Shown here one piece after another: positions 1,027-31,878 of a stretch of 31,878 bases of DNA (its first letter is position 1; the number at the start of each line of letters is the position of its first letter). The stretch spans positions 1 to 31,878 of IMG/VR virus record IMGVR_UViG_3300002920_000008. The stretch is one strand, 5' to 3'. Below the pieces are notes generated by a model. It was not told the DNA's origin, did not search any database, and was given only the letters and a program-made list of their open reading frames with translations. A program made the translations under genes and the position numbers. Source of the stretch: a virus.

Positions 1027-1572
1027 ATGGCTAAAGTACCACCCGCAAAGATAGATTTATATGAACAAGAAATTAAGGCAGGTGCAGCAGCTAGTGAAGC
1101 GACAATGCAGCGTATAGCATCTTCAGTGAACTTTTGGAATGCTTTTTACGAAGGGCAACGGGCATGGTTTCTTAACGGCAGATATAGCGCTTTTGGAACA
1201 CCACAGTATAATGTTGACGGGGCATATCCTTGTGTTACTGACATGGAGTTATATGGTTTTTGTATGTATAACTTAGTAGCTGGTAGCAGTGGTTTTACTG
1301 AGTTAAATGTTATAGTTCACCCGCCATCTGGTTCTCCTTTTAGTCTTTTTACGGTAACTCCTAAGATACCTCACACCAGTGGTAACAATGCTAGGATGAT
1401 TATAAATGTTTCAACCAATACAACGGTAGCACAGTCTACTTTTGTAACCTTGCCTACTTTTGCAGTAACAACTTTCGCGGCTGGTACCTTATTAACTTTG
1501 GATATGCCTCACGCTCAAGCTGGTGGCGAGAGTTGCGGGCTAGTTTTAGCGTTGCGTCCTTATAGCACATAG
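1027..1572 (+). CDS. Hypothetical protein, probably tail-associated (follows the large tail protein)
   Basis: A 181-aa ORF preceded by the strong SD AGGAGG at 1014-1019. It is the last gene of the plus-strand late operon. No motif recognised. Confidence 0.65.
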   Translation: MAKVPPAKIDLYEQEIKAGAAASEATMQRIASSVNFWNAFYEGQRAWFLNGRYSAFGTPQYNVDGAYPCVTDMELYGFCMYNLVAGSSGFTELNVIVHPPSGSPFSLFTVTPKIPHTSGNNARMIINVSTNTTVAQSTFVTLPTFAVTTFAAGTLLTLDMPHAQAGGESCGLVLALRPYST

Positions 1573-1651
1573 TTCATAATATATGTGTCTGGCAGTGATT
1601 TGAAGTAAAACAAGCATCCATACTTTTCACAATCACGTAAGACCAGGCGCC

Positions 1652-1903
1652 TTAAATTCTTTCAATCTTATAGAATTTAGATGAGAAGAAATCGGAATTT
1701 GATACGATTTTATAACCCATGTTATTTAAGTAGCATTTAAAATCATGATACTTTTGAGCGAACAGGAGCGGGCTAATTTCAGCTATTTCTAATGCGTGTT
1801 CTGGGCAAAGGTTGATTATGATTGGTGATTTTGATGAAGGAAATATTTTAACTTGAGTAGTTCTGTTAGTTTTGCATATCAAGCAAGTGTTTAATGTGTT
1901 CAT
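1652..1903 (-). CDS. Small Cys-rich (CxxC ... CPEH) putative zinc-binding protein
   Basis: An 83-aa ORF at the end of the minus-strand operon with a CLICK...CPEH pattern. It overlaps the RusA-like gene by 38 nt. Confidence 0.45.
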   Translation of the reverse strand: MNTLNTCLICKTNRTTQVKIFPSSKSPIIINLCPEHALEIAEISPLLFAQKYHDFKCYLNNMGYKIVSNSDFFSSKFYKIERI

Positions 1904-2342
1904 CGAATGTTAACCTTTCGATCGGTGTTACCTTAACAATTAGCTGCTCGTCTGATTGGTTAGAGCAAGTAACCTTGTGGCTAGTTTCTTTAAAAAAGAT
2001 CATGTCATCAATATCAAGTATTTTAGCAACGGCGTCTATACTGCTTTTAATTCTATTGTTTGAGTCGATTTTTTTAAAAGGTGATTTTGCTTTTTTAGAT
2101 TTAGTTAGAATGCGGTCTTGGTGAAAGACGAAATATAGTTCAATTTCAAGTGTGAAGCCGTTTTTAATCCAAGTAGCAATTTGGTTTTGAGCTTGTGAGA
2201 TTACTTTGTGATTTTTTAGTTCATAGAGTTTAATGAGGTCATCGAATATTCGAGCCGCCTTTAGTTTTATAAAGCGGCCTCTTGAGATGGTGAGTTGTCT
2301 ATTTTGGCTCGGTGGTATTGGAAGCTTCTTTAGAACTATCAT
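1866..2342 (-). CDS. rusA: RusA-like Holliday junction resolvase
   Basis: N-terminal LPIPPSQN plus the D-x-N-N-x-x-K-x-x-x-D ... DD pattern (KKIDSNNRIKSSIDAVAKILDIDD), which is typical of the RusA family. The 158-aa size also fits. Confidence 0.55.
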   Translation of the reverse strand: MIVLKKLPIPPSQNRQLTISRGRFIKLKAARIFDDLIKLYELKNHKVISQAQNQIATWIKNGFTLEIELYFVFHQDRILTKSKKAKSPFKKIDSNNRIKSSIDAVAKILDIDDMIFFKETSHKVTCSNQSDEQLIVKVTPIERLTFDEHIKHLLDMQN

Positions 2343-2505
2343 TGATATAGTCTAGGAAAGCGGCCCTTACTAGATCAACGATTTTTAGATTTTCTTTTTT
2401 TAATTTAGCTTTCACTTGGGTTACTAGGTCTGAGTCTAGTCTTGCTTGGATTGGGGTGAGTTGTTTTGATTTTGGAAGATAGTCTTTAAGGCTCATGTGT
2501 TTCAT
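2299..2505 (-). CDS. Ribbon-helix-helix (CopG/Arc-like) DNA-binding protein, candidate operon regulator
   Basis: A 68-aa protein. The segment TPIQARLDSDLVTQVKAKLKKENLKIVDLVRAAFLDYI fits the RHH pattern of one beta strand followed by two helices. It is the last small gene of the operator-controlled cluster. Confidence 0.5.
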   Translation of the reverse strand: MKHMSLKDYLPKSKQLTPIQARLDSDLVTQVKAKLKKENLKIVDLVRAAFLDYINDSSKEASNTTEPK

Positions 2506-2511
2506 CCTTTC

Positions 2512-2862
2512 TTAATAGTCATGGTCTTCATAATCTGGCTCAGGAAACTCAGCATGAACTTCGATTAGGTTTTCCAACTTACTAGCTATAAGCTCGTGAG
2601 CTGATTGAGGTAAGGTAGCAAAGCAATCAAAGTCTTCACAGTACACATCGCATCTAAGTACTTCAATTTTTTTTAGCTCCCAGTATCTATTGGGGTCAAA
2701 GGGGGTGTAGCCTATTGGCTGATAAGGCAATATGTCTTTAACCTCTTTAGCATGGACGATCATATCAATGATGTATAATAGACCTGAATCAAGTTCTGTT
2801 TCAACAGTGATTTCATCATTTATTTTTGTTACTCTTATTTTGGATTCCATATTATTACCCAC
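2512..2862 (-). CDS. Strongly acidic hypothetical protein (about 25 D/E versus 10 K/R in 116 aa)
   Basis: An ORF in the AT-rich small-gene cluster, with composition counted from the translation. No recognisable motif. Confidence 0.55.
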   Translation of the reverse strand: MGNNMESKIRVTKINDEITVETELDSGLLYIIDMIVHAKEVKDILPYQPIGYTPFDPNRYWELKKIEVLRCDVYCEDFDCFATLPQSAHELIASKLENLIEVHAEFPEPDYEDHDY

Positions 2863-3106
2863 ACTTTTTTTTTAGTTCGTATCTTTTGAAGCTAGTCATT
2901 TTAAAAATTACATCTTGATTTAAGAAGTTATCTATTAGAACTATTTTAGAACCGTAAATATCAACTTGGTTAATGCCCAATTTTAAAAACTCATCTATGA
3001 TTTGATCTGATTCTTTATAGACTTCTTTAATCGCTTCTAACTTTTCTATGATTTCATATGCTCTTTTAGCGAGTTCTTTGATTTTGAGTGCCTTGCTTGT
3101 TGTCAC
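2855..3106 (-). CDS. Hypothetical small protein
   Basis: An 83-aa ORF with a GTG start preceded by AAGGAGGCTAT. This is the same ribosome-binding context as the next gene upstream. Confidence 0.55.
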   Translation of the reverse strand: MTTSKALKIKELAKRAYEIIEKLEAIKEVYKESDQIIDEFLKLGINQVDIYGSKIVLIDNFLNQDVIFKMTSFKRYELKKKCG

Positions 3107-3131
3107 ATAGCCTCCTTATTCCATAGGTTTC

Positions 3132-3344
3132 TTATAAGCTGAAGATTAGTTCTTTTATCTCTTCAAACTTTTGTCGCAACATTCTTTTATCCTTTTGCAC
3201 ATTCCCTTTGTTTTCTTTTATACTTTGCTCAAGATTTTTTATCTCTAGTAACATCTCTATAATTTGGTGTTTTGTTTCTGCATCGTTGCTTTGAATTTCT
3301 AGGATCATATCAATAATTTCTTGGGTTTCTTGTGTCATTTTCAT
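3132..3344 (-). CDS. Hypothetical small acidic coiled-coil protein (start trimmed to the internal ATG)
   Basis: The track ORF starts at 3383, inside the palindromic operator and without an SD. The internal ATG at 3344 (MKMTQ...) is preceded by AAGGAGG with a 4-nt spacer. Confidence 0.55.
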   Translation of the reverse strand: MKMTQETQEIIDMILEIQSNDAETKHQIIEMLLEIKNLEQSIKENKGNVQKDKRMLRQKFEEIKELIFSL

Positions 3345-3382
3345 ATAGCCTCCTTTGTATGGATTCAGTATATTATTATTCA

Positions 3383-3398
3383 TGATAGAATTCTATCA
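3383..3398. promoter_or_regulatory. Perfect 16-bp palindrome TGATAGAATTCTATCA, candidate operator
   Basis: Read directly from the sequence. It lies about 10 nt downstream of the -10 element of the minus-strand promoter at 3409-3436 and upstream of the small-ORF cluster. Confidence 0.55.
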
Positions 3399-3408
3399 AA
3401 AAAGTATG

Positions 3409-3436
3409 ATTGTACCATAATGAGACAGAGTTTAAA
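3409..3436 (-). promoter_or_regulatory. Sigma70-type promoter with extended -10 (TTTAAA-16-TGgTACAAT) for the small-ORF/RHH operon
   Basis: The minus strand reads TTTAAActctgtctcattaTGgTACAAT. It sits in the 135-bp gap after the methyltransferase gene. Confidence 0.45.
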
Positions 3437-3518
3437 TGTCAGTTGGGTTATATGGCTAATTGATTGAGTTGGAATGATTCAGAGGTTATATTAGTGTTGA
3501 CTTTTGAAGTTATTTATA

Positions 3519-4451
3519 TTATCTCGCGCTGCTGTTTGTGCTTTTCTTCCATAATTCATAACCGGCGTTGTTAGCAAACAACTTTTCAACGCTTTTTAAT
3601 CTTTTGCCAGGTGATGAAAATCCTGAAAACACAGTTTTCGATTTTGCCCATATCAAGTGCAGCCATTTAGGTGCATTATACTCACTAACAAATACTGGGT
3701 TACTATTTTCTGTTACCCAAGTCCAGAATTTTGCATGATCAAAACCATCTTTAGAATATTTTGCTGTTTCACAATACGGCGGATCGCAGTAAATGACTGA
3801 GTTTGGTTTAATTGTTACTTGTTCATATGATAGGTTTGTAAATGTGATTATGTTACTAAACGGGGATACTTGTGATAGATTTTGCGCTCTCGTTAACTCC
3901 AAGTTCTCAACTTGAAATAAATTAGAAAAATGTTTATATTTTAATTTTTTATGTGTTACCCTAATTGCTTTAGATGAATATTTTTTTCTTTCTTGTATGC
4001 TAAGGCTATCTGCGAACTTGTGAATTCCTAAGGCTTCCTTTGCGAAATCGTCAAACTCATTAAAAACGATTGCGTTGTGAATTGATTTTTTAAAAGGCTC
4101 AATGTCTTTTGAGTATAGGTAACCTTTTAAATTGTTACTAAAAGACCATATAATTTTAACATATGGGTCATTAGAGTTATAAAACTCATCTCTGGTAACA
4201 AACTTAGGTTTAAAATTTTCATAAGAGTATTTTCCAGCGATGCAGTCTTGTATAAACTGCGTTTGACCTTGGTTAATTTCATTAAAATGAAAGTGTTTCC
4301 ATTTGTGTCTGAATCTAAGGACAGCGCAATGGGTAACAGAGAAACCGCCGCCGAACAGGTCATATAGATTTTCAGCTTCTGGTAACAAGGATAATATTTT
4401 GGTAGCGATTCTGCTTTTGCTACCCAAGTAGCTTACACCAAATTCAGCCAT
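3519..4451 (-). CDS. Dam-family (D12 class, alpha-type) N6-adenine DNA methyltransferase
   Basis: N-terminal YLGSKSRIATKI, the FGGGFSV AdoMet motif and the catalytic DPPY motif (VIYCDPPYCE), in the order typical of Dam-like enzymes. The target site is unknown. Confidence 0.8.
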   Translation of the reverse strand: MAEFGVSYLGSKSRIATKILSLLPEAENLYDLFGGGFSVTHCAVLRFRHKWKHFHFNEINQGQTQFIQDCIAGKYSYENFKPKFVTRDEFYNSNDPYVKIIWSFSNNLKGYLYSKDIEPFKKSIHNAIVFNEFDDFAKEALGIHKFADSLSIQERKKYSSKAIRVTHKKLKYKHFSNLFQVENLELTRAQNLSQVSPFSNIITFTNLSYEQVTIKPNSVIYCDPPYCETAKYSKDGFDHAKFWTWVTENSNPVFVSEYNAPKWLHLIWAKSKTVFSGFSSPGKRLKSVEKLFANNAGYELWKKSTNSSAR

Positions 4452-4959
4452 TTGTATGCAGCTTAAACCCGCACTGAGGGCATTTTAATTCTTTTGAGTT
4501 TCCAATTTTCTCACCCTCATTATAGTTTTCAACATCAGGCAGATCGATGTTACTAATCATGTCGATATCATGTTCCGAAAATCCCCAATCAAGCAAGTCA
4601 TTAAGGTCAAAATCAGATTTTAGCTTTTGGAAGTCCCAATCGCCCGCGATGTTCTTGTTCATTCTAATGATAACAGCTTCTTCTTGCTTTGGTGTTAACA
4701 TTCTATCGGGAACGTAAACATCTATTTCTTGGTTTGGGTCTTCTTCAAGTAACACTTCGAATCGCGCGTGCCCCGATAGAATTGTGTTGTCTAGATTGAT
4801 ATTAATAGGCTGCGCAAACCCTATTTCATTGATTGATTTTCTAAGCTCTTGCTTTCCAGAATCTGAAATTATTCGAGGATTCTTGTTATAGGGTTTTAAC
4901 TCCGAAATCTTTCTTTTCTCTAGTTTCCAGTTAATTATTTTGTTCATATGTAAGATCAT
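4444..4959 (-). CDS. ParB-like nuclease (ParBc) domain protein with C-terminal CxxC zinc-ribbon-like tail
   Basis: ISELKPYNKNPR ... LRKSINEIGFAQPI ... LSGHARFE matches the ParB N-terminal domain pattern. It overlaps the methyltransferase gene by 8 nt, a common phage pairing. Confidence 0.7.
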   Translation of the reverse strand: MILHMNKIINWKLEKRKISELKPYNKNPRIISDSGKQELRKSINEIGFAQPININLDNTILSGHARFEVLLEEDPNQEIDVYVPDRMLTPKQEEAVIIRMNKNIAGDWDFQKLKSDFDLNDLLDWGFSEHDIDMISNIDLPDVENYNEGEKIGNSKELKCPQCGFKLHTNG

Positions 4960-4988
4960 AATAATATTGCATTAGAAATAGCAACATG

Positions 4989-5451
4989 AAACTTACCAAG
5001 CTGAGTTATTTTGTAAGCTTTGTCCTAATAACTAATAATTCTAATTTGTAATGGTAACGAAAGTTGGTTTTGAATAGCTTCTGGATGGTTACCTGAAAGT
5101 GTTACCTAGACATGCGCGCATTGCCTTGAGCTGAGCAGAGCAAGGCTTATAGATGAGCGGGTGTTACTACTCAACTGGCTCTCAATCTTACTTCACCCTA
5201 GCTTGTGTAGTAACAAGCAACCCTTAGTGTAATCGGGTAGTTAGGTTTTCATTATAGCCGAGGGCAAGCAATCGAACTTCACTCGCGCAGTCCGTTATGG
5301 TCTCACATTCTCATGTAAGGGTCTTAGCTTCCCAAGACGAGACATTGCCCGTCGCCTCGCTTTCGCTGAGGCACGCATATTTACGACCGGTTACAAGCTT
5401 GATCTGGCTTAGCTTCACCGTGTGGGCTATGCGTATACCCCTGACCAGATC
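4989..5451 (-). ncRNA. Candidate ~460-nt structured non-coding RNA or long structured leader (family not recognised)
   Basis: No credible ORF. GC is about 49% over 5101-5460, against about 40% for the genome. There are at least nine perfect 5-10 bp helices, including a three-way junction. On the minus strand there are GAAA and GAGA tetraloops and G-U pairs where the plus strand would have A-C. A promoter sits directly upstream. The ends are approximate. Confidence 0.35.
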
Positions 5452-5458
5452 AAAATCG

Positions 5459-5487
5459 AATATAGGGGAAATGTGGCGGTTTAACAA
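5459..5487 (-). promoter_or_regulatory. Sigma70-type promoter TTGTTA-17-TATATT driving the structured region
   Basis: The minus strand reads TTGTTAaaccgccacatttccccTATATT. The predicted start near 5451 coincides with the first base of the 7-bp helix 5445-5451/5401-5407. Confidence 0.4.
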
Positions 5488-5522
5488 GGTGTTTTTAGGA
5501 GAGTTATGATTAGAGTGAGGTG

Positions 5523-5558
5523 GAAAAAAAAGAGACGAGCTTTTGGGGCTCGCCTCTG
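5523..5558 (-). terminator. Intrinsic terminator, functional orientation minus strand
   Basis: A 10-bp stem (5531-5540/5548-5557) that is perfect on the minus strand apart from one G-U pair, but has an A-C mismatch on the plus strand. On the minus strand it is followed by eight U. The plus strand has no U tract after the stem. Confidence 0.7.
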
Positions 5559-5660
5559 AAAAAAACGCATGGTTATGTGGGCTATATGATCATGCACTTG
5601 CTAATGTAACTGCAATGTGAATAGAAGTAAAGCGATTTAAATCAACGTGAGGGGGGTTAT

Positions 5661-6482
5661 ATGAGATGGGTCAAGCTCTACACCAATGTCCATAACAGTG
5701 AGCCGATGAGAGAGCTACTGTCCCAGGTCGGTCACATCGCGTTATGTTACTACATTTTGCTTGAAATGTGTGCAGAAAAGTTAAGCTGTGAGGGTAAAAT
5801 TCTTACAGAAAGTGATATGGTATTTAGTTTTGAAGAGAGAATTTTGCGGGAGCGGATGAGGTTATCGCCTCGGAAGCTAAGAGAGTTTTTAAAAATTTCT
5901 TCAGAAAAATTTAAATTTTCTTTAGAAATTTCTGAAAATTTTTTTAAAATTAAAATGCCTATGTTGCTGAAATTGTTACATACTGATCTAAAAAAATCAA
6001 GAGCAAATCAAGAGCAAATCAAGAGCAAATCAAGAACAAAACGTGAACAAGTCAAGAGTAGCACGCAGGTGACCACGGTTACCGGTGAAGGTTCTGGGGT
6101 TTTGAGCAAAACAACAGAAGAAAGGCTTGCTGAAAAGGAGGCATCGAGTCAAAACAGGAGGATTAAGGAGGCTTATATAGAGGCTTACAAAGCTAAGTAT
6201 GGTGTTGAGCCATTGACACAGAATGCAACTTTTAACTCTCAGTGCAATATGCTTAGGAAGAAAGTCGGTTTTGAGACTGCTATAGAGCTAGTGAAGTTTT
6301 ACCTTAATCACCAGAAATCTTTTTATGCGTCTAAGACTCATAGCTTTGGACTCTTGTTAGCAGATGCTGAGACTTTGGTAGCACAAATGCGGATGGGTGT
6401 TACCGTTACCGGATTTGAATCAAGACAGATTGAGGAAAGCGCAGGGTTAATGGCGCAACTAGAAAGATTAAGGAGGAAATAA
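5661..6482 (+). CDS. Replisome organizer / replication initiator-like protein
   Basis: The N-terminus MRWVKLYTNVHNSEPMRELL...YYILLEMCAEK resembles the phage replisome organizer N-terminal domain. The SD GAGGGGGG lies upstream. The gene contains phased iterons and is the first gene of the rightward early operon. Confidence 0.55.
   Translation: MRWVKLYTNVHNSEPMRELLSQVGHIALCYYILLEMCAEKLSCEGKILTESDMVFSFEERILRERMRLSPRKLREFLKISSEKFKFSLEISENFFKIKMPMLLKLLHTDLKKSRANQEQIKSKSRTKREQVKSSTQVTTVTGEGSGVLSKTTEERLAEKEASSQNRRIKEAYIEAYKAKYGVEPLTQNATFNSQCNMLRKKVGFETAIELVKFYLNHQKSFYASKTHSFGLLLADAETLVAQMRMGVTVTGFESRQIEESAGLMAQLERLRRK
5997..6060. repeat. 11-bp phased iterons (TCAAGAGCAAA x3 perfect, then degenerate copies), putative replication origin inside the organizer gene
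   Basis: Copies start at 5997, 6008, 6019, 6030 (one mismatch) and 6052. All are in 11-bp register, about one helical turn. Confidence 0.6.
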
Positions 6483-7049: not shown

Positions 7050-7997
7050 TTGTGGGGTTTGATTATGCTTGGGAAATTAGATTCCGAAAGGTTTCAATCA
7101 TCTCTTGTTATTAGTCCTAGTAGCTTAGTAACATTTTTAAATTCCCCCGCAGAGTACCATCAGCGATATATATTAGGCAAAAGGCCTGAACAGACTGAGG
7201 CGATGTTAGTTGGCGAAGCAATTCATTGCGCTATCTTAGAGCCTGACAAGTTTGATTCTAGGTTTGCGACTGTATCACCAGAAGTTAACTACATTAAGAC
7301 CGCAGATGAAATAATAGAGGCTATAAAGGCTCATGGGGAGAAGCCTGTTAGCAGGCGAAAAGGTGACTTAATAAGCCAGTTACTCGCATTAGATCCAGAC
7401 GCGCGCATCCTTGATGTGTATTTAGACGAAGTTACTGAAAGCGGTAGGAAGTTACTTAAGCCAAGTGATTTTAAAATGTGCTTAGATATTCAATCAAAAG
7501 TTAAGTCGCATGATTGGCTTTCAAGAGTGTTGTCAAAGGGCAATGCTGAGCAGTGGGTTTGGTCTCAATTCACAGAAAACACAATTATCCATGGCCGTAT
7601 GGATTTTTTTAGTAACGAGTTTAACCAGCCTGTTATTTTGGATTTTAAGACTGTGAAATCCGCGCATCCTGAGAGTTTTCAGCGCCAGATATTTAATGAA
7701 AAGCTTTATGTGCAAGCTGCTATGTATTGTGATATGGTTAAAGACTCAACGGGAAAAGATCCGCTATTTGCATGGGTTACCATAGAGAAGTCAGAACCAT
7801 ATGTTATAGAGATATATGCTGCTGACTTTGGGTTACTTGAGGCCGGAAGGTCAACTTATCACAAAGGCGCTCAAAGGTTAATAGAGGCAACAGAGTCAAA
7901 CAATTTTCGTGGTTACACTAATGGCAAAGTTACAACGATAACACTGCCATCATGGGCTTTTAATAGGTTGGATTATTATGCAGAGCAAGAGATATGA
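7050..7997 (+). CDS. PD-(D/E)XK (RecB/Cas4-like fold) exonuclease, partner of the RecT-like protein
   Basis: Motifs GEAIHCAILE, GRMDFF...VILDFKT and QAAMY (QxxxY). The gene lies one small HTH gene upstream of the annealase gene. The start is uncertain (TTG at 7050 or ATG at 7065). Confidence 0.65.
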   Translation: MWGLIMLGKLDSERFQSSLVISPSSLVTFLNSPAEYHQRYILGKRPEQTEAMLVGEAIHCAILEPDKFDSRFATVSPEVNYIKTADEIIEAIKAHGEKPVSRRKGDLISQLLALDPDARILDVYLDEVTESGRKLLKPSDFKMCLDIQSKVKSHDWLSRVLSKGNAEQWVWSQFTENTIIHGRMDFFSNEFNQPVILDFKTVKSAHPESFQRQIFNEKLYVQAAMYCDMVKDSTGKDPLFAWVTIEKSEPYVIEIYAADFGLLEAGRSTYHKGAQRLIEATESNNFRGYTNGKVTTITLPSWAFNRLDYYAEQEI

Positions 7998-8313
7998 TGT
8001 TACCACTGACAAAGGCCATGCGGTTTTAAAGCTAATGGCTGATGGATGGAGCTTTACGTATGCAATGAAGAAAGTTTTTAATTCACAAAACCAATCGATA
8101 GCAAAGCGTCTTTACGAGATTAATCCCAGAATTAGGGAAGTTGTCGAGATGCGAAAGCGTATCAAGCGTCAATCTGTTTACAAAGCTGTTAAAGGGTTTC
8201 CAAAAGTAGATGAGAACACTATCAAACAGTTAATCAAAGAGAGTAAGAAAAGAAGGAGATTAGAAAATGAGCGACGCTCAGCAGGCATCAACACAGAAGG
8301 CAAAGGGAAGTAA
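7978..8313 (+). CDS. Small basic helix-turn-helix protein
   Basis: The N-terminal KGHAVLKLMADGWSFTYAMKKV is HTH-like and similar to the N-terminus of 8949..9152. The C-terminus is Lys/Arg rich. Confidence 0.45.
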   Translation: MQSKRYDVTTDKGHAVLKLMADGWSFTYAMKKVFNSQNQSIAKRLYEINPRIREVVEMRKRIKRQSVYKAVKGFPKVDENTIKQLIKESKKRRRLENERRSAGINTEGKGK

Positions 8314-10003: not shown

Positions 10004-10195
10004 ATGGAAGATCAGGTGACAGTTGAGCTATCAAGAGAAGGGATAACCGACTTTTTAGCAAGTTGCTTGTCGGAAATTCATATTGACGAGATAACACCGC
10101 ATATTACTATCTTAGATCAAAGGCATATACATTTTGTCTTAGGAGATTTTAAGTTACTCATAGAAGTAACAGATATAGACAAGTTACTGAACTAA
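10004..10195 (+). CDS. Hypothetical small acidic protein (start moved to the ATG at 10004)
   Basis: The track start, GTG at 9995, lies within the SD-like AAAGGGG. The ATG at 10004 has normal spacing from that SD. Confidence 0.45.
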   Translation: MEDQVTVELSREGITDFLASCLSEIHIDEITPHITILDQRHIHFVLGDFKLLIEVTDIDKLLN

Positions 10196-10238: not shown

Positions 10239-10685
10239 TTGGAGGACAAAATAAGTAGAAGTCAGTTTGTTATGGATGAAGATGAGTTTAAAAAACTCAT
10301 GAGACTCCACGCAACACTAACCGAAGTAGCAGGATGGTTTGATGTGTCGGAAGACACAATAGAGGCCGCTTGTAAAAGGCAGTTCAATCTTTCATTTTCG
10401 GAATGCTTTAAAAAATTTTCTGCTGGGGGGAAGATTTCTCTAAGGCGTGCGCAATGGATTGCAGCCACTGAGAAGCACAACACCGCCTTGCTAATTTGGC
10501 TTGGGAAACAGTACTTAGGTCAAAAGGATATGATAGAACATTCTGGTAACCCTGACAAAGCACCAATACAATTAGCTTATGCGCAACCAGTACCACAAAA
10601 GAAACTTGAATCAGCTCTTAATCAAAAGATAAATGAGGTCATTGAGGTAGAGGCTAAGTGCTTAGATGAACCAGAAACTGACTAA
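10239..10685 (+). CDS. terS: Terminase small subunit
   Basis: It lies immediately upstream of TerL and overlaps it. There is an HTH-like segment (LTEVAGWFDVSEDTIE) and the LIWLGKQYLGQKD motif common in small terminases. The start is TTG. Confidence 0.55.
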   Translation: MEDKISRSQFVMDEDEFKKLMRLHATLTEVAGWFDVSEDTIEAACKRQFNLSFSECFKKFSAGGKISLRRAQWIAATEKHNTALLIWLGKQYLGQKDMIEHSGNPDKAPIQLAYAQPVPQKKLESALNQKINEVIEVEAKCLDEPETD

Positions 10686-12081
10686 GGAAGAGGCGGAGAA
10701 GCTATCACAACCTTACCTTACTAAATTCAATCCCTATGTGATACCAATGCAAGGGGCAGTTATAAACCTGATCCGAGCCGATTGGGATTATTCAAAAGGA
10801 ACCCCCGAAATACTATTAACTGGTTCATATGGTAGTAGCAAGTCGGTGCTACTAGCTCACCTTGCGGTAACACATTGTTTTTTACAACCCTATTCAAGGG
10901 TTTGCATATGTCGAAGGGCGTTACCAGATTTAAAGCGCACAATCTTCCAAGAGATTTTGGAGCACATATCAGAGGACCTTGTTGAAGGCAAGGATTACAA
11001 AGTCAATCACTCAACAGCTATGATCAAATTTAGAAACGGTTCAGAGATTATCAGCATGAGTTGGGCGGACAAGCGTTATAAAAAGGGTCGTTCACTCCGG
11101 TTATCAATGCTAGTAATCGAAGAGCTTACTGAAAACGATGAGCAAGACTTTGAAGCTTTCAAAACTTTAAAAGCAAGGGTCAGAAGGTTACCAGGCATTA
11201 AAGAAAATGTAGTAATTTGTGCTACTAACCCAGATGACCCCGAGTCGATATGGTATAAATACTTTATAGCTTCTCAACCTCATCCAACACGGTTTGTCTT
11301 CTATTCGAAGACAGAAGACAACCCCTTTATAGATCCAATCTACATAGAGCAATTAAAGAAAGATTTGGACCCCATATCAATCAGGCGTTACCTTTACGGG
11401 GAGTGGGTATCATTACAAAACAATGGTATCTACTATTGTTATAATAGCAGTGTTCACTTCCTTAAAGACAAGGAATATCAGTTCAATACTATGTTACCAA
11501 TTGACATCTCATGGGACTTTAATATAGGCGAAAACAAGCCTCTATCGATCATCGTCGGGCAATATGATCCAAGCCTTGAAACGTTCCACGTAGAACGATC
11601 TATTTGCATTGAATCGGCATCAACACACTTAATGCTGGATGAATTGCAATCCAGAGGCTACTTCGATCTAGGAGCTAAAATAAGAATTTACGGTGATGCT
11701 ACTGGTCAAGCTAGGTCTACAAACTCACTTCACTCTAATTATGAGATTATCAAGAATTACTTAAGTAACTATACTGATTCACAAGGCAGAAGGGTTACTT
11801 TTGAGATGAAAGTCCCCAGAAGTAACCCACCGATCAGGACTAGGCATAATGTTGTAAACAGCTATTTCGAAAACGGCAAAGGGCAAGCAAGATGTTTCCT
11901 TTATAAGTATGCTACTAAACTAGATGAGGGCTTGAGGTTGACGAAACTTAAAAAAGGCGGAGATTATGTAGAGGATGATAGTAAAGACTATCAACACGTT
12001 ACCACAAGCCTAGGTTATTGGATGGTGCATATTCATAACACTAAGAACGTTCACAAAATAACCAGGAATAGGAGATTTTAA
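10666..12081 (+). CDS. terL: Terminase large subunit
   Basis: Deviant Walker A LLTGSYGSSKS, Walker B MLVIEE, and C-terminal nuclease-type acidic motifs (ISWDFN, YGDATG). The size is 471 aa and a portal-sized gene follows. Confidence 0.8.
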   Translation: MNQKLTKEEAEKLSQPYLTKFNPYVIPMQGAVINLIRADWDYSKGTPEILLTGSYGSSKSVLLAHLAVTHCFLQPYSRVCICRRALPDLKRTIFQEILEHISEDLVEGKDYKVNHSTAMIKFRNGSEIISMSWADKRYKKGRSLRLSMLVIEELTENDEQDFEAFKTLKARVRRLPGIKENVVICATNPDDPESIWYKYFIASQPHPTRFVFYSKTEDNPFIDPIYIEQLKKDLDPISIRRYLYGEWVSLQNNGIYYCYNSSVHFLKDKEYQFNTMLPIDISWDFNIGENKPLSIIVGQYDPSLETFHVERSICIESASTHLMLDELQSRGYFDLGAKIRIYGDATGQARSTNSLHSNYEIIKNYLSNYTDSQGRRVTFEMKVPRSNPPIRTRHNVVNSYFENGKGQARCFLYKYATKLDEGLRLTKLKKGGDYVEDDSKDYQHVTTSLGYWMVHIHNTKNVHKITRNRRF

Positions 12082-12083
12082 AA

Positions 12084-13496
12084 ATGGATGTGAAGCAGAT
12101 AATCAAAGAAATTGAGGGGCTAAGCAACAGAAAGAGAAAATCAGTTAGTTTTGCGGAATCAGAGATTTACAACGACAATATATATCCTTATGTTAGTCGT
12201 TACCTTCAAAACTTTTACGACAAAGACACTCTAAACGAAGTATCTATTTATAGCTCTATTAACCTTGCTAAGAGGATTGTAGATCAAGAAGCAAGCTTAT
12301 ATAGAACCGCCCCAACAAGATCGTTTTCCGGATTATCCGATGATCAGGTAGCTACAATCAAGCAAGTATATAATGACTTAAAGATAGATCATGTAATGCT
12401 TAGAAGTAACAGGGCTTTTAAGCTTCAAGGGCAAAATCATATTGAAGTGCTACCTTTTAACGGTAAGCTAATCGCCCGTGTTCTATTAAACCATCACTTG
12501 GATGCAATTCCAGTCGAAGAAAACCCAGAAGTGGCAGAGGGGTATGTTGTTAGTGGCTTCGATCGTTACCAAGTAGTTGATAGTACAGATATTAAAAACC
12601 AACGCATAGCTGATTTTGCTGACTACAAGTCAACCTTAAAAAGGTATGCGTTCTTTACAAAAGATAGTAACTTTATAGTAGATGGAAACGGTGAGTTACT
12701 ATCAGATAGCACAGAAAACCCAATCGGAATGCTGCCAATTGTCGAGGTTGCAGGCTTTAAGGACTTCACATATTGGGTAGAGAAGGGAACTAGCGTTACC
12801 GACTTCACTATCCAATTTAACGCGACAATGAGCGATATCGCGCATATTGTTAGGATGCAAGGCTTTGCACAAGCATATATTAGCGGGGCGTCTGATATGT
12901 TGCCGGAACGTCTTGTGATTGGACCTAATCACGTGTTGCGATTGCCTGTTGATCCAAACAACCCAGTTCAAACGCAATTTGGCTTTGCTAATCCTAGTCC
13001 CGATTTAGCTGGTTCTTTAAGGTTTCCAGAGGTGTTGTTAAGTAGCTTTTTAACATCACGGGGCTTAAGTCCTAAGCTTGTATCAGGTAGCGGCGAGGTT
13101 GATAAATACACGAGCGGTCTTGATAGGTTACTATCAATGATTGAGAGATTCGAGGCCAGTCAGTACGATATGGAGCTATTTAGATCAGCAGAGAAGAACT
13201 TATTTAAACTCATTATCCGTTACTTAAATACATATGCGGGGACATCTGTTCTAAGTTATAAGTGGAATAATGTGAAAGAAGATTCTGTTGATATATTCGT
13301 TAAATACTCAGAACCTCAAATGCTAATGAGCGAGCAAGAAAAGCTGGACGCGATTGCTAGAAAGAAAGAACTGGGGTTAATGAGTGATCTGGACGCTATA
13401 ATGGAATATTACGGATTAGACGAAGAGGCGGCTAGAGCAAAGTTAAACAAGATGAGATCGGAAATGATTTTAAGTCAGGTAACAAACGAAGGGTAA
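12084..13496 (+). CDS. Portal protein
   Basis: A 470-aa ORF directly after TerL with an AGGAG SD. Assigned by synteny and size only. Confidence 0.65.
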   Translation: MDVKQIIKEIEGLSNRKRKSVSFAESEIYNDNIYPYVSRYLQNFYDKDTLNEVSIYSSINLAKRIVDQEASLYRTAPTRSFSGLSDDQVATIKQVYNDLKIDHVMLRSNRAFKLQGQNHIEVLPFNGKLIARVLLNHHLDAIPVEENPEVAEGYVVSGFDRYQVVDSTDIKNQRIADFADYKSTLKRYAFFTKDSNFIVDGNGELLSDSTENPIGMLPIVEVAGFKDFTYWVEKGTSVTDFTIQFNATMSDIAHIVRMQGFAQAYISGASDMLPERLVIGPNHVLRLPVDPNNPVQTQFGFANPSPDLAGSLRFPEVLLSSFLTSRGLSPKLVSGSGEVDKYTSGLDRLLSMIERFEASQYDMELFRSAEKNLFKLIIRYLNTYAGTSVLSYKWNNVKEDSVDIFVKYSEPQMLMSEQEKLDAIARKKELGLMSDLDAIMEYYGLDEEAARAKLNKMRSEMILSQVTNEG

Positions 13497-18808: not shown

Positions 18809-19171
18809 ATGCTGATGTTTGATGATCCAAACACAAAGTTAGATATAGTTGCAAGTTCTATTGTTACTATCCTTGCTGGTGAGACTAAATCAGCAGAATA
18901 TATTTTTACGTCTGATAAAGTTTTAACTGGTGCCGAATACTTTAGAGAAGGCGGCAACTTTGGTGATGTTGTTAGTTTTCAGATAGTTCATCCGGTAGCA
19001 GGTGTGTTAGACCAATTTGCTACAAATATATATTTAAACAAAGAACACGGATTATATCAATTTTACAGAGCAAGAATCCCATCAGGTTTAATAGCGCGCG
19101 CTGTATATGTTAACAACGGTCCGAACCAAGCAAAGTTTTGTTTTAATCTAATAACCCACAAGGAAAAATGA
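18809..19171 (+). CDS. Hypothetical protein (head-tail connector region)
   Basis: A 120-aa ORF tightly packed with its neighbours. Confidence 0.45.
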   Translation: MLMFDDPNTKLDIVASSIVTILAGETKSAEYIFTSDKVLTGAEYFREGGNFGDVVSFQIVHPVAGVLDQFATNIYLNKEHGLYQFYRARIPSGLIARAVYVNNGPNQAKFCFNLITHKEK

Positions 19172-19704
19172 AAGCACAGCTTTACGTAGTCTTTTCTAGT
19201 AACAGAAAATGGTGGTACATACTCGATGACATAATTCGAATGGTCGAAGGTGTTCACTACTCACATACTGCTATTATGCTGCATAATCCCATAAGCGGGA
19301 AATCAACGATCTACGAATTAAAATTCCCAAAAGGAAGGTCGATCGATCTAGTTGAATGGCTTAAGGAGCATCAGTTAAGGGAAATATTTTTGATCGATGA
19401 GCAGTTTGATACCATGTCAAGCGATCATTATGTTCTTTTGAACATGGTTAACAAGCCATATTCGATAATTCAATTACTGGTGATAGGTTTTGGGATGATT
19501 TGCTTGCCTTTTGGTAGAATACTATCATCTGCAAGGATCAACGGTAACAGAGCAAAGATATGTACAGAGCTTGTAGCTAGGTTTTTAAGCCGTTGTTATG
19601 GGGTAAGACTCAGGAAGTCGCCGGACATGATGGCGTTAAAAGACACTTTTAATTTAGTTAAAACGTTCGTAGAATCTAAGAAGAGGCTAGGCGATGGCGT
19701 TTAA
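19168..19704 (+). CDS. Possible permuted papain-like (YiiX / Peptidase_C92-like) hydrolase
   Basis: A His-first then Cys arrangement: VHYSHTAIML ... PYS ... AKICTELVARFL. This resembles the H...CSELV signature of that family. Call from memory. Confidence 0.3.
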   Translation: MKAQLYVVFSSNRKWWYILDDIIRMVEGVHYSHTAIMLHNPISGKSTIYELKFPKGRSIDLVEWLKEHQLREIFLIDEQFDTMSSDHYVLLNMVNKPYSIIQLLVIGFGMICLPFGRILSSARINGNRAKICTELVARFLSRCYGVRLRKSPDMMALKDTFNLVKTFVESKKRLGDGV

Positions 19705-29034: not shown

Positions 29035-29278
29035 TGCTTGTGCTACCAAAGCTCCGACACCTCCAAGAGTTGACTTATATCAACCTATCTTAAAACATAA
29101 TCGATGCAATGTTTATAGGATGAACAACGATGAGCAATGGGAAATAAAGGAGCGGTTACCAATTGATGCTTGCAATGGTATCTTTGGTGTTACTGCTGAT
29201 GATTTTAACAAGTTGCGTGACTACTCACGAAGATTAAAAACATTCATAGAAAATAATTGTAATTGTGGGAACAAATAA
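28997..29278 (+). CDS. Secreted or lipoprotein, o-spanin-like
   Basis: The signal peptide MRALTFLILVASSAC has a Cys at a lipobox-like position (the -3 residue is atypical). A Pro-rich segment follows. The gene starts inside the preceding gene, the overlapped spanin architecture. Confidence 0.4.
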   Translation: MRALTFLILVASSACATKAPTPPRVDLYQPILKHNRCNVYRMNNDEQWEIKERLPIDACNGIFGVTADDFNKLRDYSRRLKTFIENNCNCGNK

Positions 29279-30075: not shown

Positions 30076-31878
30076 TGTTACCAAGAGAGCAAGAGCACTA
30101 TTTGAACAAACTGAGATTAAGCCTAACCTAGTTTTAAAGATCGACGGTTATAACAAGTTATTTGGCGTACAGGCTATAAGAGATGATGCGATCTTTGGTT
30201 ATAATAACATTGAATTTGGTGACGTTGGTCTTGTGTTTGGAGGGCTTGCAGAAATATCGGATCAACGTGACTTAATATCATTAAGCGGGACTAGTACCGA
30301 GATCAACCAGCAATTGGAGCCGGATCAGGGTAACGTTTCAAGTGTTCAGAAGATGACAATACGCTTGGTTGATCAAGCTGAGGAGATGACTAGGCTTGTT
30401 AGTCCGGGGTTCGTGTTTGATGATATTTTGTACAAGTATGCTCAAGTGTATATTGGACACACTGACAGCGCTTTCCCTGATGACTATATTGAGCTTTTTA
30501 ATGGTAACATTCAAGGGGTTAGATACGGAGCTGGATTTGTAGAGCTTGAGATAGTGAACCCTGAGGATTTTCAGAGGGCTGAGCTATTTACGAAGGCCGA
30601 GGCTATTGTTACTCAACCAATTAACTATAATTCTCGTAACATTCAAGGGATATTATTTAAGGCACATGACCATGTTACTGGCGTTGTTCAGGTAAATATC
30701 GTTTCAGGTGCGAGCGGTGATAACGCAGTTGTATCGGTTTCAGGTAATGACATAACTATACAGATTAACACATCTGCAACCAAGATAAAGACAATTAAAA
30801 AGGCTGTTGACGATGATTCATCATGCCGTCAGTTAGTAGAGGTTAGTTACTTAGCAGGGACTAACAAGGAGGCTATAGCTACTACTACAGGCGGCTTTGT
30901 ACAGCTTTTAAATGATACCACTATCTACTTAGATGACGTTAAGTTGTTTTTAGATCCTGTCGGTAACCTTTTTAAGACTTATATTAAGGTTGGCGAGGAG
31001 ATAATAGAATACACGGGCAGGGATGTAGTTAACAACACGCTAACAGGATGTGTAAGAGCGTCATTAAATACGATAGGCAAATATCACAAAAGTGGCGAGA
31101 CGGCTGAGAGTTTTTACAAGTTGGGTGATGGGACAAGTAACAATGGCAATGCGATTGACTTAGCTTTAAAGGTGTTACTGAGCGGTCAGGAAGACCCTAA
31201 TTACATCACGAATTTACCAGTGTTAGCTTTTGCTAAGTACGGGACTTTTGACACAAACCCTAATGCTGTATACTTTAGTAACCAAGATTTAGAACGAGAG
31301 TTTGGCATAGTTGCTGGAGATTTTGTTACTATAACTGGTGCTACCAACGCAGCCAACAATATAGTTAATTTACCTGTTAAGACAGTTATTAAGGGCAATG
31401 GCTTTAGTGCTTTGGAGTTTAATCATACTTTTGTAATTGAGTCTACTGGTGCAGTTGCCAGTGCAAAGAGTCAATACAATGTGTTACCTGACGGCCTAGG
31501 GTTATTACCTAGGCAAGTGGATATTTTAAGGTTTTTAGAGATCAAGAAAATATATTATTCTGATATCTCTTTAAATGAGATATATATAAAAAACACGGTT
31601 AGGGCAAGCGAGTTATTAAACAAGCAGTTATATTTGCCATCTGGGTTATTCTCGTTACCAAGAAGAGGAAGGGTTAGTGTCGGTTTTCTAGCACCTCCAT
31701 TGTTTGATCCTCTGATGAAGACATTAAACCTTGATACCGTGAAGAATATTGACGGGGTAACAATCAACAGAACGACGACAAGGAACTTTTATAACGCGAT
31801 TATATACAAATATAACGAGGACTCTTTAGAAGACAAGTTCACAAGCGGTCGAGTCTATTTAAGTGTAGACTCTACGAA
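30065..31878 (+). CDS. N-terminal part of the ~915-aa wrap-around tail tip / host-specificity-like protein (continues at 1..1011)
   Basis: The frame is open from the TAG at 30059-30061 to the window end with no stop. The first start candidate is GTG at 30065, overlapping the amidase stop. The ORF is absent from the track because it runs off the edge. Confidence 0.7.
   Translation, partial: MAFNVTKRARALFEQTEIKPNLVLKIDGYNKLFGVQAIRDDAIFGYNNIEFGDVGLVFGGLAEISDQRDLISLSGTSTEINQQLEPDQGNVSSVQKMTIRLVDQAEEMTRLVSPGFVFDDILYKYAQVYIGHTDSAFPDDYIELFNGNIQGVRYGAGFVELEIVNPEDFQRAELFTKAEAIVTQPINYNSRNIQGILFKAHDHVTGVVQVNIVSGASGDNAVVSVSGNDITIQINTSATKIKTIKKAVDDDSSCRQLVEVSYLAGTNKEAIATTTGGFVQLLNDTTIYLDDVKLFLDPVGNLFKTYIKVGEEIIEYTGRDVVNNTLTGCVRASLNTIGKYHKSGETAESFYKLGDGTSNNGNAIDLALKVLLSGQEDPNYITNLPVLAFAKYGTFDTNPNAVYFSNQDLEREFGIVAGDFVTITGATNAANNIVNLPVKTVIKGNGFSALEFNHTFVIESTGAVASAKSQYNVLPDGLGLLPRQVDILRFLEIKKIYYSDISLNEIYIKNTVRASELLNKQLYLPSGLFSLPRRGRVSVGFLAPPLFDPLMKTLNLDTVKNIDGVTINRTTTRNFYNAIIYKYNEDSLEDKFTSGRVYLSVDST
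31802..31878. repeat. 77-bp terminal overlap identical to bases 1-77 (circular closure of the contig)
   Basis: Direct comparison shows atatacaaatataacgagg...gtgtagactctacgaa at both ends. The reading frame of the flanking ORF is preserved across the join. Confidence 0.95.

Follow-up and report, generated by a model that had tools for sequence, protein, structure and literature searches.

Operons in which a small ribbon-helix-helix (RHH) protein regulates counter-defence or establishment genes are already established, and the locus described here is, by analogy, at best a further candidate of that kind. It occupies positions 2299-3440 of the viral record IMGVR_UViG_3300002920_000008, the whole 31,878-bp stretch of which we refer to as the window, and it comprises three small open reading frames (ORF1, ORF2 and ORF3) and a gene for an RHH protein. 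Among the described systems, Aca14 is an RHH-type anti-CRISPR-associated (Aca) regulator of 66 amino acids (aa; WP_005725436.1 / HDR1349883.1), which was confirmed by electrophoretic mobility shift assay and reporter assay and whose inverted repeat overlaps the -10 element (NAR 2026, PMC13551039). Because an RHH-type Aca has been validated experimentally, the analogy between the locus and operons that pair anti-CRISPR (acr) with aca genes is legitimate (PMC13551039): The RHH protein of the window is of similar size (65 aa) and shares an apparent operon with small genes of accessory type, the promoter region harbours an AT-rich inverted repeat, and a methylase or restriction-modification context sometimes adjoins. 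The likeness is one of size and layout. Aca14 operons carry recognizable acr genes (AcrIF23, AcrIF6, AcrVA3) or csx20, whereas no ORF of the locus is recognizable; the Aca14 repeat lies over the -10 element and is conserved across operons, whereas that of the window lies downstream of one -10 element and is absent from a sister lineage; and, unlike in Aca14 operons, the RHH gene of the window is followed by genes for a RusA resolvase and an HNH-like protein.

Two further systems offer themselves for comparison. Reg576 of the pLS20 family is an RHH protein that represses ardC along with further establishment genes and places two dimers on each operator (PMC6294495). The resemblance consists in an autoregulating RHH repressor through which the 'establishment' genes of incoming DNA are proposed to be expressed early and transiently; the differences are that Reg576 belongs to a plasmid system, that its operator is a dual direct heptamer, TTATCCC, instead of a palindrome, and that its targets include the anti-restriction gene ardC. 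For this comparison, the RHH protein of the window had no sequence match in the plasmid records searched. P22 Arc, an RHH protein of ~53 aa, acts at Pant in immI on a ~21-bp operator with TAGA boxes, which it binds as a dimer of dimers in an autoregulatory manner; its DNA-contact residues are Q9, N11 and R13 (PMC12645479). The palindrome of the window likewise holds two inverted TAGA boxes, and in a putative alignment its RHH protein has an amide and an arginine where Arc has N11 and R13. In P22, however, arc comes first and is followed by the antirepressor gene ant, whereas the window has no Ant homologue, and Arc and the window protein share no significant sequence similarity, their relation being visible at the fold level only (Foldseek E>1). 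Readings of the locus as an immI-like region or as a PADLOC defence system were rejected, since no partner gene was matched.

We tentatively favour, at a little short of an even chance, the reading that the locus is an RHH-repressed accessory sub-operon with orphan genes inside the leftward gene block of this phage. According to this model, the RHH protein, as a dimer or as a dimer of dimers, would repress transcription and, on accumulating, switch the unit off, and its most likely operator here would be the palindrome TGATAG-AATT-CTATCA, which lies past the start site of a candidate promoter P1 and over the -35 element of a second candidate promoter P2. Precedents for RHH repressors that occupy inverted or TAGA-type repeats as dimers of dimers are Arc (PMC12645479), Reg576 (PMC6294495) and Aca14 (PMC13551039). 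ORF1, ORF2 and ORF3 would be fast-diverging accessory (host-takeover) proteins, for which anti-defence is one plausible role by analogy, and ORF1 would reflect the recent gain or loss of a cassette in a variable position adjoining the promoter.

The RHH gene (2299..2496, minus strand) follows ORF3 on the same strand at a distance of 15 nt and encodes a protein of 65 aa for which an extended segment (residues ~13-20), two helices (22-34 and 39-56) and a disordered tail are predicted. As a single sequence, it produced sub-threshold matches only (CopG_antitoxin, E 0.078; an Arc-like PHROG, E 0.04). An exhaustive HMMER search recovered 50 small proteins that share the pattern DYLPK...VQARxD...L...VK..LKK......DL..AAF..YL, and the resulting family profile (52 members; ~50 clusters at 50% identity) matched the solved RHH structures of SvtR (2kel, E 1.8e-5), a CopG-family protein (9kkd, E 4.9e-4), 2k9i (E 3.1e-3) and 6iya (E 4.4e-3). 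Pfam assigns 7 of the 52 members to RHH_1, 5 to CopG_antitoxin and 1 to Omega_Repress. The top profile matches, SvtR (SIRV1 gp08) and the CopG family, are small viral or plasmid transcription repressors; the relation is one at the superfamily level only, and the window protein alone falls below every Pfam threshold. An AlphaFold monomer (predicted local distance difference test, pLDDT, 79) consists of an extended segment, two helices and a disordered tail, and 8 of its 9 Foldseek matches are RHH proteins (Arc, CdbA, TacA, AmrZ, CopG) with template modelling (TM) scores of 0.48-0.75 normalized to the target, each at E>1 and hence not significant by itself, as one would expect from the monomer model of a 45-residue domain. 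Family profile and structural model thus support the RHH assignment of the original prediction, and we accept it. From alignment to the strand patterns of CopG and Arc, the DNA-facing residues are probably P15, Q17 and R19. A type II toxin-antitoxin module was rejected, as the NCBIfam RelB/DinJ match scored 17.8 bits where the cut-off is 96 and no neighbour matches a toxin family.

A candidate operator is found upstream of ORF1: The perfect 16-bp palindrome TGATAGAATTCTATCA (3383..3398), with the arms TGATAG-AATT-CTATCA, had been noted before and proved to be the only perfect palindrome of this length in the window, next to three 14-mers and fifteen 12-mers. It lies just downstream of the start site of P1 (3409..3436, minus strand; TTTAAA-16-TGgTACAAT with an extended -10, scoring 9/12 with TG in a consensus scan), the -10 element of which ends 10 nt ahead of it, and it overlaps the -35 element of P2 (3372..3399, minus strand; TTGATA-16-AATAAT), which at 10/12 has the top score of the region and is a consensus match only. 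Judged by these positions, binding of a protein to the palindrome would take place at a repressor-type site with either P1 or P2. Further downstream, the leader AAGGAGGCTAT, consisting of a Shine-Dalgarno sequence plus spacer, precedes ORF1 (3345..3355, minus strand; ATG at 3341), and a second copy precedes ORF2 (3107..3117, minus strand; GTG at 3106). The identity of the two leaders, also part of the original prediction, extends to 16 of 18 nt when a longer stretch is compared.

The small ORFs exist as predicted, and most of their sizes had to be revised: With the likely true starts, which we judged by Shine-Dalgarno positions and homologues, the 70, 83, 116 and 68 aa given earlier become 69, 83 and 112 aa for ORF1, ORF2 and ORF3 and 65 aa for the RHH protein, so that only the value of 83 aa stood. 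ORF1 (3132..3341, minus strand; ATG start) encodes a predicted helical protein of coiled-coil type with an isoelectric point (pI) of 4.9 and is confined to the lineage of the window. ORF2 (2855..3106, minus strand; GTG start) encodes a basic orphan protein (pI 9.0) that is conserved only in the sister lineage, and ORF3 (2512..2850, minus strand) encodes an orphan with a net charge of -15 and a pI of 4.4, predicted to be β-rich with one helix. The latter prediction is matched by an AlphaFold model from a three-sequence alignment (pLDDT 76), which is β-rich and has a single helix. Among 5.8 billion proteins, the only homologues of ORF3 are its copies in the sister lineage; it has no sequence match in the PDB and no tblastn match in plasmid records, and an alignment scan of IMG/VR was blank. 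For ORF2, there was no sequence match in the PDB, plasmids not having been searched and the 5.8-billion-protein set having been checked only for the three sister contigs. In isolate phages, tblastn returned nothing for any of the three ORFs; neither plasmids nor the 5.8-billion-protein set were searched with ORF1.

The sole related lineage in the collections searched consists of three Joint Genome Institute (JGI) metagenome contigs, L001-L003, and comparison with them reveals which parts of the locus are fixed. Amino acid identity to the window is highest for the ParB-like protein encoded at the head of the leftward block (83%), followed by the RHH protein (78%, orthologues in L001 and L002), RusA (76%), the methylase encoded upstream of the locus (64%), the Zn protein encoded last in the block (57%, orthologue in L002), ORF3 (54-57%, L001-L003) and ORF2 (44-49%, L001 and L002). 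The order ORF2-ORF3-RHH-RusA-Zn is conserved, the RHH/RusA and RusA/Zn overlaps are both kept, and the N-terminal LPIPPSQN motif of RusA is conserved in L002. Nonsynonymous divergence (dN) from the sister lineage amounts to 0.38-0.42 for ORF2 and ORF3, as compared to 0.14-0.15 for RHH and RusA and 0.09 for ParB; the ratio of nonsynonymous to synonymous divergence (dN/dS) is 0.21 for ORF2, which indicates purifying selection, and the same holds for those neighbours for which it is computable. Both ORF2 and ORF3 are genuine genes, and their evolution is faster than that of the genes around them. ORF1, on the other hand, is absent from L001-L003, where a homologous leader leads directly into the ORF2 homologue. 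At the junction between methylase and ORF2, where the window has intergenic DNA and ORF1, the sister contigs carry an orphan of 98-141 aa on the opposite strand (L001 586-1011, L002 1357-1728 and L003 1873-2169, each on the minus strand), for which the family libraries hold no match. Because this orphan replaces ORF1, the junction is a spot of gene gain and loss. The comparison of gene content among related phages that the original prediction had proposed thus had a split outcome: ORF1 varies, whereas ORF2-ORF3-RHH-RusA is fixed in both lineages.

Several observations weigh against an RHH-repressed accessory sub-operon and keep our preference for it tentative. The first group concerns the pairing of RHH protein and palindrome. 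In the sister lineage, the intergenic blocks that are conserved, TCTGTCTCATT, CATACTTTTTTG and TATACTGA, lie outside the palindrome; the bases aligned to TACAAT read AAAAGC (L001, L002) and those aligned to the palindrome read GTTTTCTTTTTTCTATAC, and no inverted TGATAG pair occurs anywhere in the 7.2 kb of L001-L003. At the same time, P15, Q17 and R19 are identical in the sister RHH protein. As the putative reading residues are unchanged while the palindrome and the TACAAT -10 element are absent, a conserved pairing of the two is disfavoured; operator turnover between the lineages is possible. The second group concerns transcription. The region 1500-5800 holds 24 promoter-like sites, compared to 14.2 +/- 4.4 in shuffled sequences, so that the extended -10 promoter of the original prediction is present as a match and weak as evidence of a promoter; chance alone could account for the P1 and P2 calls in DNA this rich in AT. 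A scan of the window detected no intrinsic terminator between the methylase gene and the cluster and none at the ends of the unit, and since none follows the methylase gene, read-through from an upstream promoter is possible. Structure in the 5' untranslated region and hairpins at the unit ends were not significant either (z-scores -0.25 to -1.44). The third group concerns the proteins. As had been stated before, the three small ORFs show no recognizable motifs: No significant match came from Pfam, the Acr and Ard families of which were thereby covered, or from PHROGs, PADLOC and NCBIfam. In the structure search proposed earlier for the small ORFs and run here on ORF3, neither the PDB (no match, TM below 0.25) nor BFVD yielded a known anti-defence fold, the latter returning weak matches to uncharacterized phage proteins of 90-118 aa only (TM 0.4-0.46, E 0.02-0.1). 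Moreover, a subgroup of the RHH family is encoded by stand-alone genes on bacterial chromosomes, beside efflux or metabolic genes, which makes the family one of general small regulators and not a marker of anti-defence.

For the wider RHH family, we looked at the genomic surroundings of its members. Apart from the family members found by HMMER, searches for relatives of the window locus were mostly blank: tblastn with the RHH protein gave nothing significant in phages and plasmid records, scans of IMG/VR with the RHH protein and with RHH alignments gave no relatives, metagenome scans with the RHH alignment and with the ParB alignment gave nothing, and genome scans with the RHH alignment and with a DNA pattern of the conserved promoter blocks gave nothing, the latter pattern being without hits in IMG/VR as well. 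The ParB alignment retrieved one locus from IMG/VR, L011, which is 30% identical and has an unrelated layout. In other phages, remote RHH homologues lie within strings of small genes of unknown function. In two independent lineages, L005/L006 (496-2844) and L007-L010 (~2019-4184), such a string adjoins divergent ParB-like and hypermodification genes, and the DNA-modification neighbours in these uncultured phages belong to Tet_JBP, TAGT and CTP_transf_like; the combination of RHH, ParB-like and DNA-modification genes is a recurrent neighbourhood. In L004, the RHH homologue stands alone. None of the neighbours of remote RHH homologues shows homology to ORF1, ORF2 or ORF3, and no shared operator motif was found upstream of these homologues. 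An 88-aa and a 114-aa gene of L007 were considered as relatives of ORF3 and ORF2, respectively, and rejected at a profile-profile probability of 1.4%.

Of the competing explanations, the one that survives best, which we consider possible yet rather unlikely, is that of an ordinary 'nin-like' accessory or DNA-metabolism region. In lambdoid phages, 'nin' regions hold small ORFs, a methylase and RusA/NinG between the replication and the late genes. Following this explanation, ORF1, ORF2 and ORF3 would have non-defence roles, for instance as replication or recombination factors or as modulators of host physiology, the RHH protein would have other targets, for example in an early-to-late switch, and the palindrome would be part of a small genome-wide set of sites. 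The window shares with nin regions the tight packing of small ORFs of mostly unknown function among a Dam-type methylase and a RusA-family resolvase; it differs in that it has neither a Q antiterminator nor lambdoid homologues and in that it has a candidate promoter, a palindrome and an RHH gene of its own. The gene neighbours speak for such a region. Upstream of the locus, the first leftward gene (4444..4959, minus strand; phrog_620, E 3.5e-28) encodes a 171-aa protein with a ParB N-terminal domain and a C-terminal Zn-ribbon motif, and the second (3519..4451, minus strand; Pfam PF02086, E 5.8e-10; phrog_56, E 4e-26) a D12-class (Dam-like) N6-adenine DNA methyltransferase. Downstream, a 158-aa Holliday-junction resolvase of the RusA family (1866..2342, minus strand) matches Pfam PF05866 over profile positions 2-112 of 124 with 26.8 bits against a cut-off of 22.8, and the last leftward gene (1652..1903, minus strand), which overlaps the RusA gene, encodes an 83-aa Cys-rich (CxxC...CxxH), weakly HNH-like protein without a Pfam match, here called the Zn protein. 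BLASTP relates the latter at E 5e-4 to a protein of L007 that matches HNHc_6 and HNH PHROGs. As a side observation, this L007 protein is likewise encoded just downstream of the RHH homologue in that unrelated phage locus. The start of the RusA gene lies 44 nt inside the 3' end of the RHH gene, and from this arrangement the RHH gene appears translationally coupled to that for RusA. The claim that the RHH gene closes the cluster therefore has to be dropped: RusA overlaps its 3' end, and the HNH-like gene comes after that. The maintenance of the ORF2-ORF3-RHH-RusA synteny together with this coupling likewise fits an ordinary DNA-metabolism region.

The nin-like explanation also draws on the recurrence of the palindrome arms elsewhere in the genome. 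An a-priori search of the window with the whole 16-mer and up to 3 mismatches gave 3 sites where 0.24 are expected, and TGATAG-N4-CTATCA with at most 1 mismatch gave 3 sites against 0.09 expected. Perfect inverted TGATAG pairs with spacers of 0-10 nt number 3; shuffled sequences had 0.03 on average, and not one of 1000 reached even 2. In addition to the intergenic pair upstream of ORF1 (3383, N4), these are an N4 pair, TGATAG-GTTA-CTATCA, inside the ORF at 12084-13496 (13121..13136; 7-bp arms TTGATAG/CTATCAA), and an N6 pair, TGATAG-TAAAGA-CTATCA, in the 3'-terminal part of the large-terminase ORF (11976..11993). Copies with one mismatch are found inside the ORF at 19168-19704 (19512..19527, N4, TGGTAG-AATA-CTATCA) and in the intergenic region before 10239 (10017-10033). 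These arms suggest that some DNA-binding protein reads several sites in this genome, without singling out which protein this would be, and the copies at 13121, 11976 and 19512 lie within packaging and structural genes. The two intragenic N4 copies at 13121 and 19512 have an identical codon phase. The intragenic copies, however, lack an obvious promoter context. Moreover, three inverted pairs occur for the hexamer TTACTT too (9143, 11757 and 28214; spacers of 2, 0 and 6 nt), above what the shuffles predict; these are either a second recurrent inverted repeat or the sign of a lenient null, and because TTACTT gives three pairs as well, the shuffle null for inverted pairs may be too generous. The late-gene sites furthermore lie outside the sequence of all relatives, L001-L003 not covering them.

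A true acr-aca-type operon, in which ORF1, ORF2 and/or ORF3 inhibit immunity (CRISPR-Cas, restriction-modification or other systems) and the RHH protein is an Aca-like autorepressor at the palindrome, is in our view unlikely. The architecture fits, and an RHH Aca of nearly equal size exists in Aca14; of the acr-aca-like layout claimed originally, the promoter region with an inverted repeat, the small orphans and the co-encoded DNA-binding protein were all retrieved, whereas the terminal position of the RHH gene was not. The strong acidity of ORF3, the quick divergence of ORF2 and ORF3, the presence or absence of ORF1 directly beside the promoter, and the location next to a self-protective DNA methylase in the window and to hypermodification genes in relatives elsewhere point in the same direction. 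The window nevertheless lacks two features of acr-aca operons, namely a recognizable anti-defence gene and an inverted repeat that is conserved along with the regulator: Homology to known Acr or anti-restriction proteins is lacking in Pfam, PHROGs and the PDB, and for ORF3 also by fold. The RHH gene leads into a coupled RusA gene with a housekeeping function in DNA repair, and ORF2 and ORF3 are fixed partners of RHH in both lineages; they are conserved syntenic core genes and not swappable cargo, only ORF1 being variable.

The most far-reaching version of the anti-defence explanation, which we regard as quite improbable, goes further: ORF1, ORF2 and ORF3 would be new anti-defence families, the 65-aa protein would found an Aca14-like family of phage RHH regulators, and inverted TGATAG arms would mark both the early operon and the late-gene sites, thereby tying the shut-off of counter-defence to a genome-wide temporal switch. 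If the RHH protein autoregulates and any of ORF1, ORF2 or ORF3 blocks a defence, new inhibitor families would be at hand, as would a second lineage of RHH-type regulators in the recently opened class of anti-defence regulators without a helix-turn-helix, and the RHH family profile with its ~50 clusters at 50% identity could serve as bait in guilt-by-association searches. For the present, the locus is worth an entry on a screening list, as a candidate from a rare, uncultured phage lineage, and is not a discovery.

Highly doubtful, finally, is the proposal that the palindrome is not the site of the RHH protein and is bound by another protein, such as the ParB-N/Zn-ribbon protein (parS sites are 16-bp palindromes) or a host regulator, or is due to chance or specific to this lineage: It draws on the absence of the palindrome from the sister lineage despite a nearly identical RHH protein, on the spacing of the arms, which is N4 or N6 among the copies and thus unusual for a rigid dimeric DNA binder, and on the recurrence of a ParB-like gene beside RHH-bearing clusters, but the 171-aa ParB-like protein has no helix-turn-helix domain recognizable by Pfam or PHROGs, its sister is 83% identical although the sister contigs lack the motif too, and half-sites one helical turn apart suit the binding of an Arc-type dimer of dimers.

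To return to the RHH-repressed accessory sub-operon, its genomic setting is as follows. An exact direct terminal repeat of 77 bp (1-77 and 31802-31878) makes the window, which is the whole contig, a complete phage genome of ~31.8 kb, either circularly assembled or terminally redundant. From 5661 on, almost all genes point rightward; they include those for a PD-(D/E)XK exonuclease and a RecT-like annealing protein, for the large terminase (10666-12081), which is only ~24% identical to that of any isolate phage, for structural proteins and for an amidase at 29263. The sole leftward block extends from 4959 to 1652 and is oriented away from the genes for recombination, packaging and structure, the locus forming the promoter-proximal part of its second half; within it, the methylase gene is followed by a gap of 177 nt and then by the packed six-gene unit ORF1-ORF2-ORF3-RHH-RusA-Zn. 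The cluster had been described as compositionally foreign at ~27% GC. The measured value for 2299-3440 is 33.0%, compared to 39.4% for the window, and because the whole leftward block (1652-4959) has 33.9%, the composition of the cluster resembles that of its neighbours; by part, ORF1, ORF2 and the intergenic region have ~29% and ORF3 and the RHH gene 37%. The DNA of 1600-5600 had no match in isolate phages, and look-ups of the exact sequences of the window proteins found no record.

Three stretches outside the leftward block may be mentioned as side observations. An ORF of 111 aa between the exonuclease and RecT-like genes (7978-8313, plus strand) shows a sub-threshold resemblance to Pfam AcrIIA4 (E 0.036, 14.8 bits, cut-off 27), which is most likely due to chance. 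Between the divergent leftward and rightward blocks lies an ORF-free, GC-richer stretch of ~700 bp (4960-5660), which contains a strong terminator-like hairpin (5557..5531, minus strand); its minus-strand fold has a z-score of only -2.0, and Rfam gave no match in the whole window or in the ORF-free 4900-5700. This stretch may give rise to a non-coding RNA, or else have a role in regulation or as an origin. Inside the adjacent ORF (5661-6482), an AT-rich cluster of inverted repeats built on AAATTT/GAAATTTC (5885-5950) includes the 14-bp palindrome AAAATTTAAATTTT at 5906 and recalls an origin located within a replication-initiator gene.

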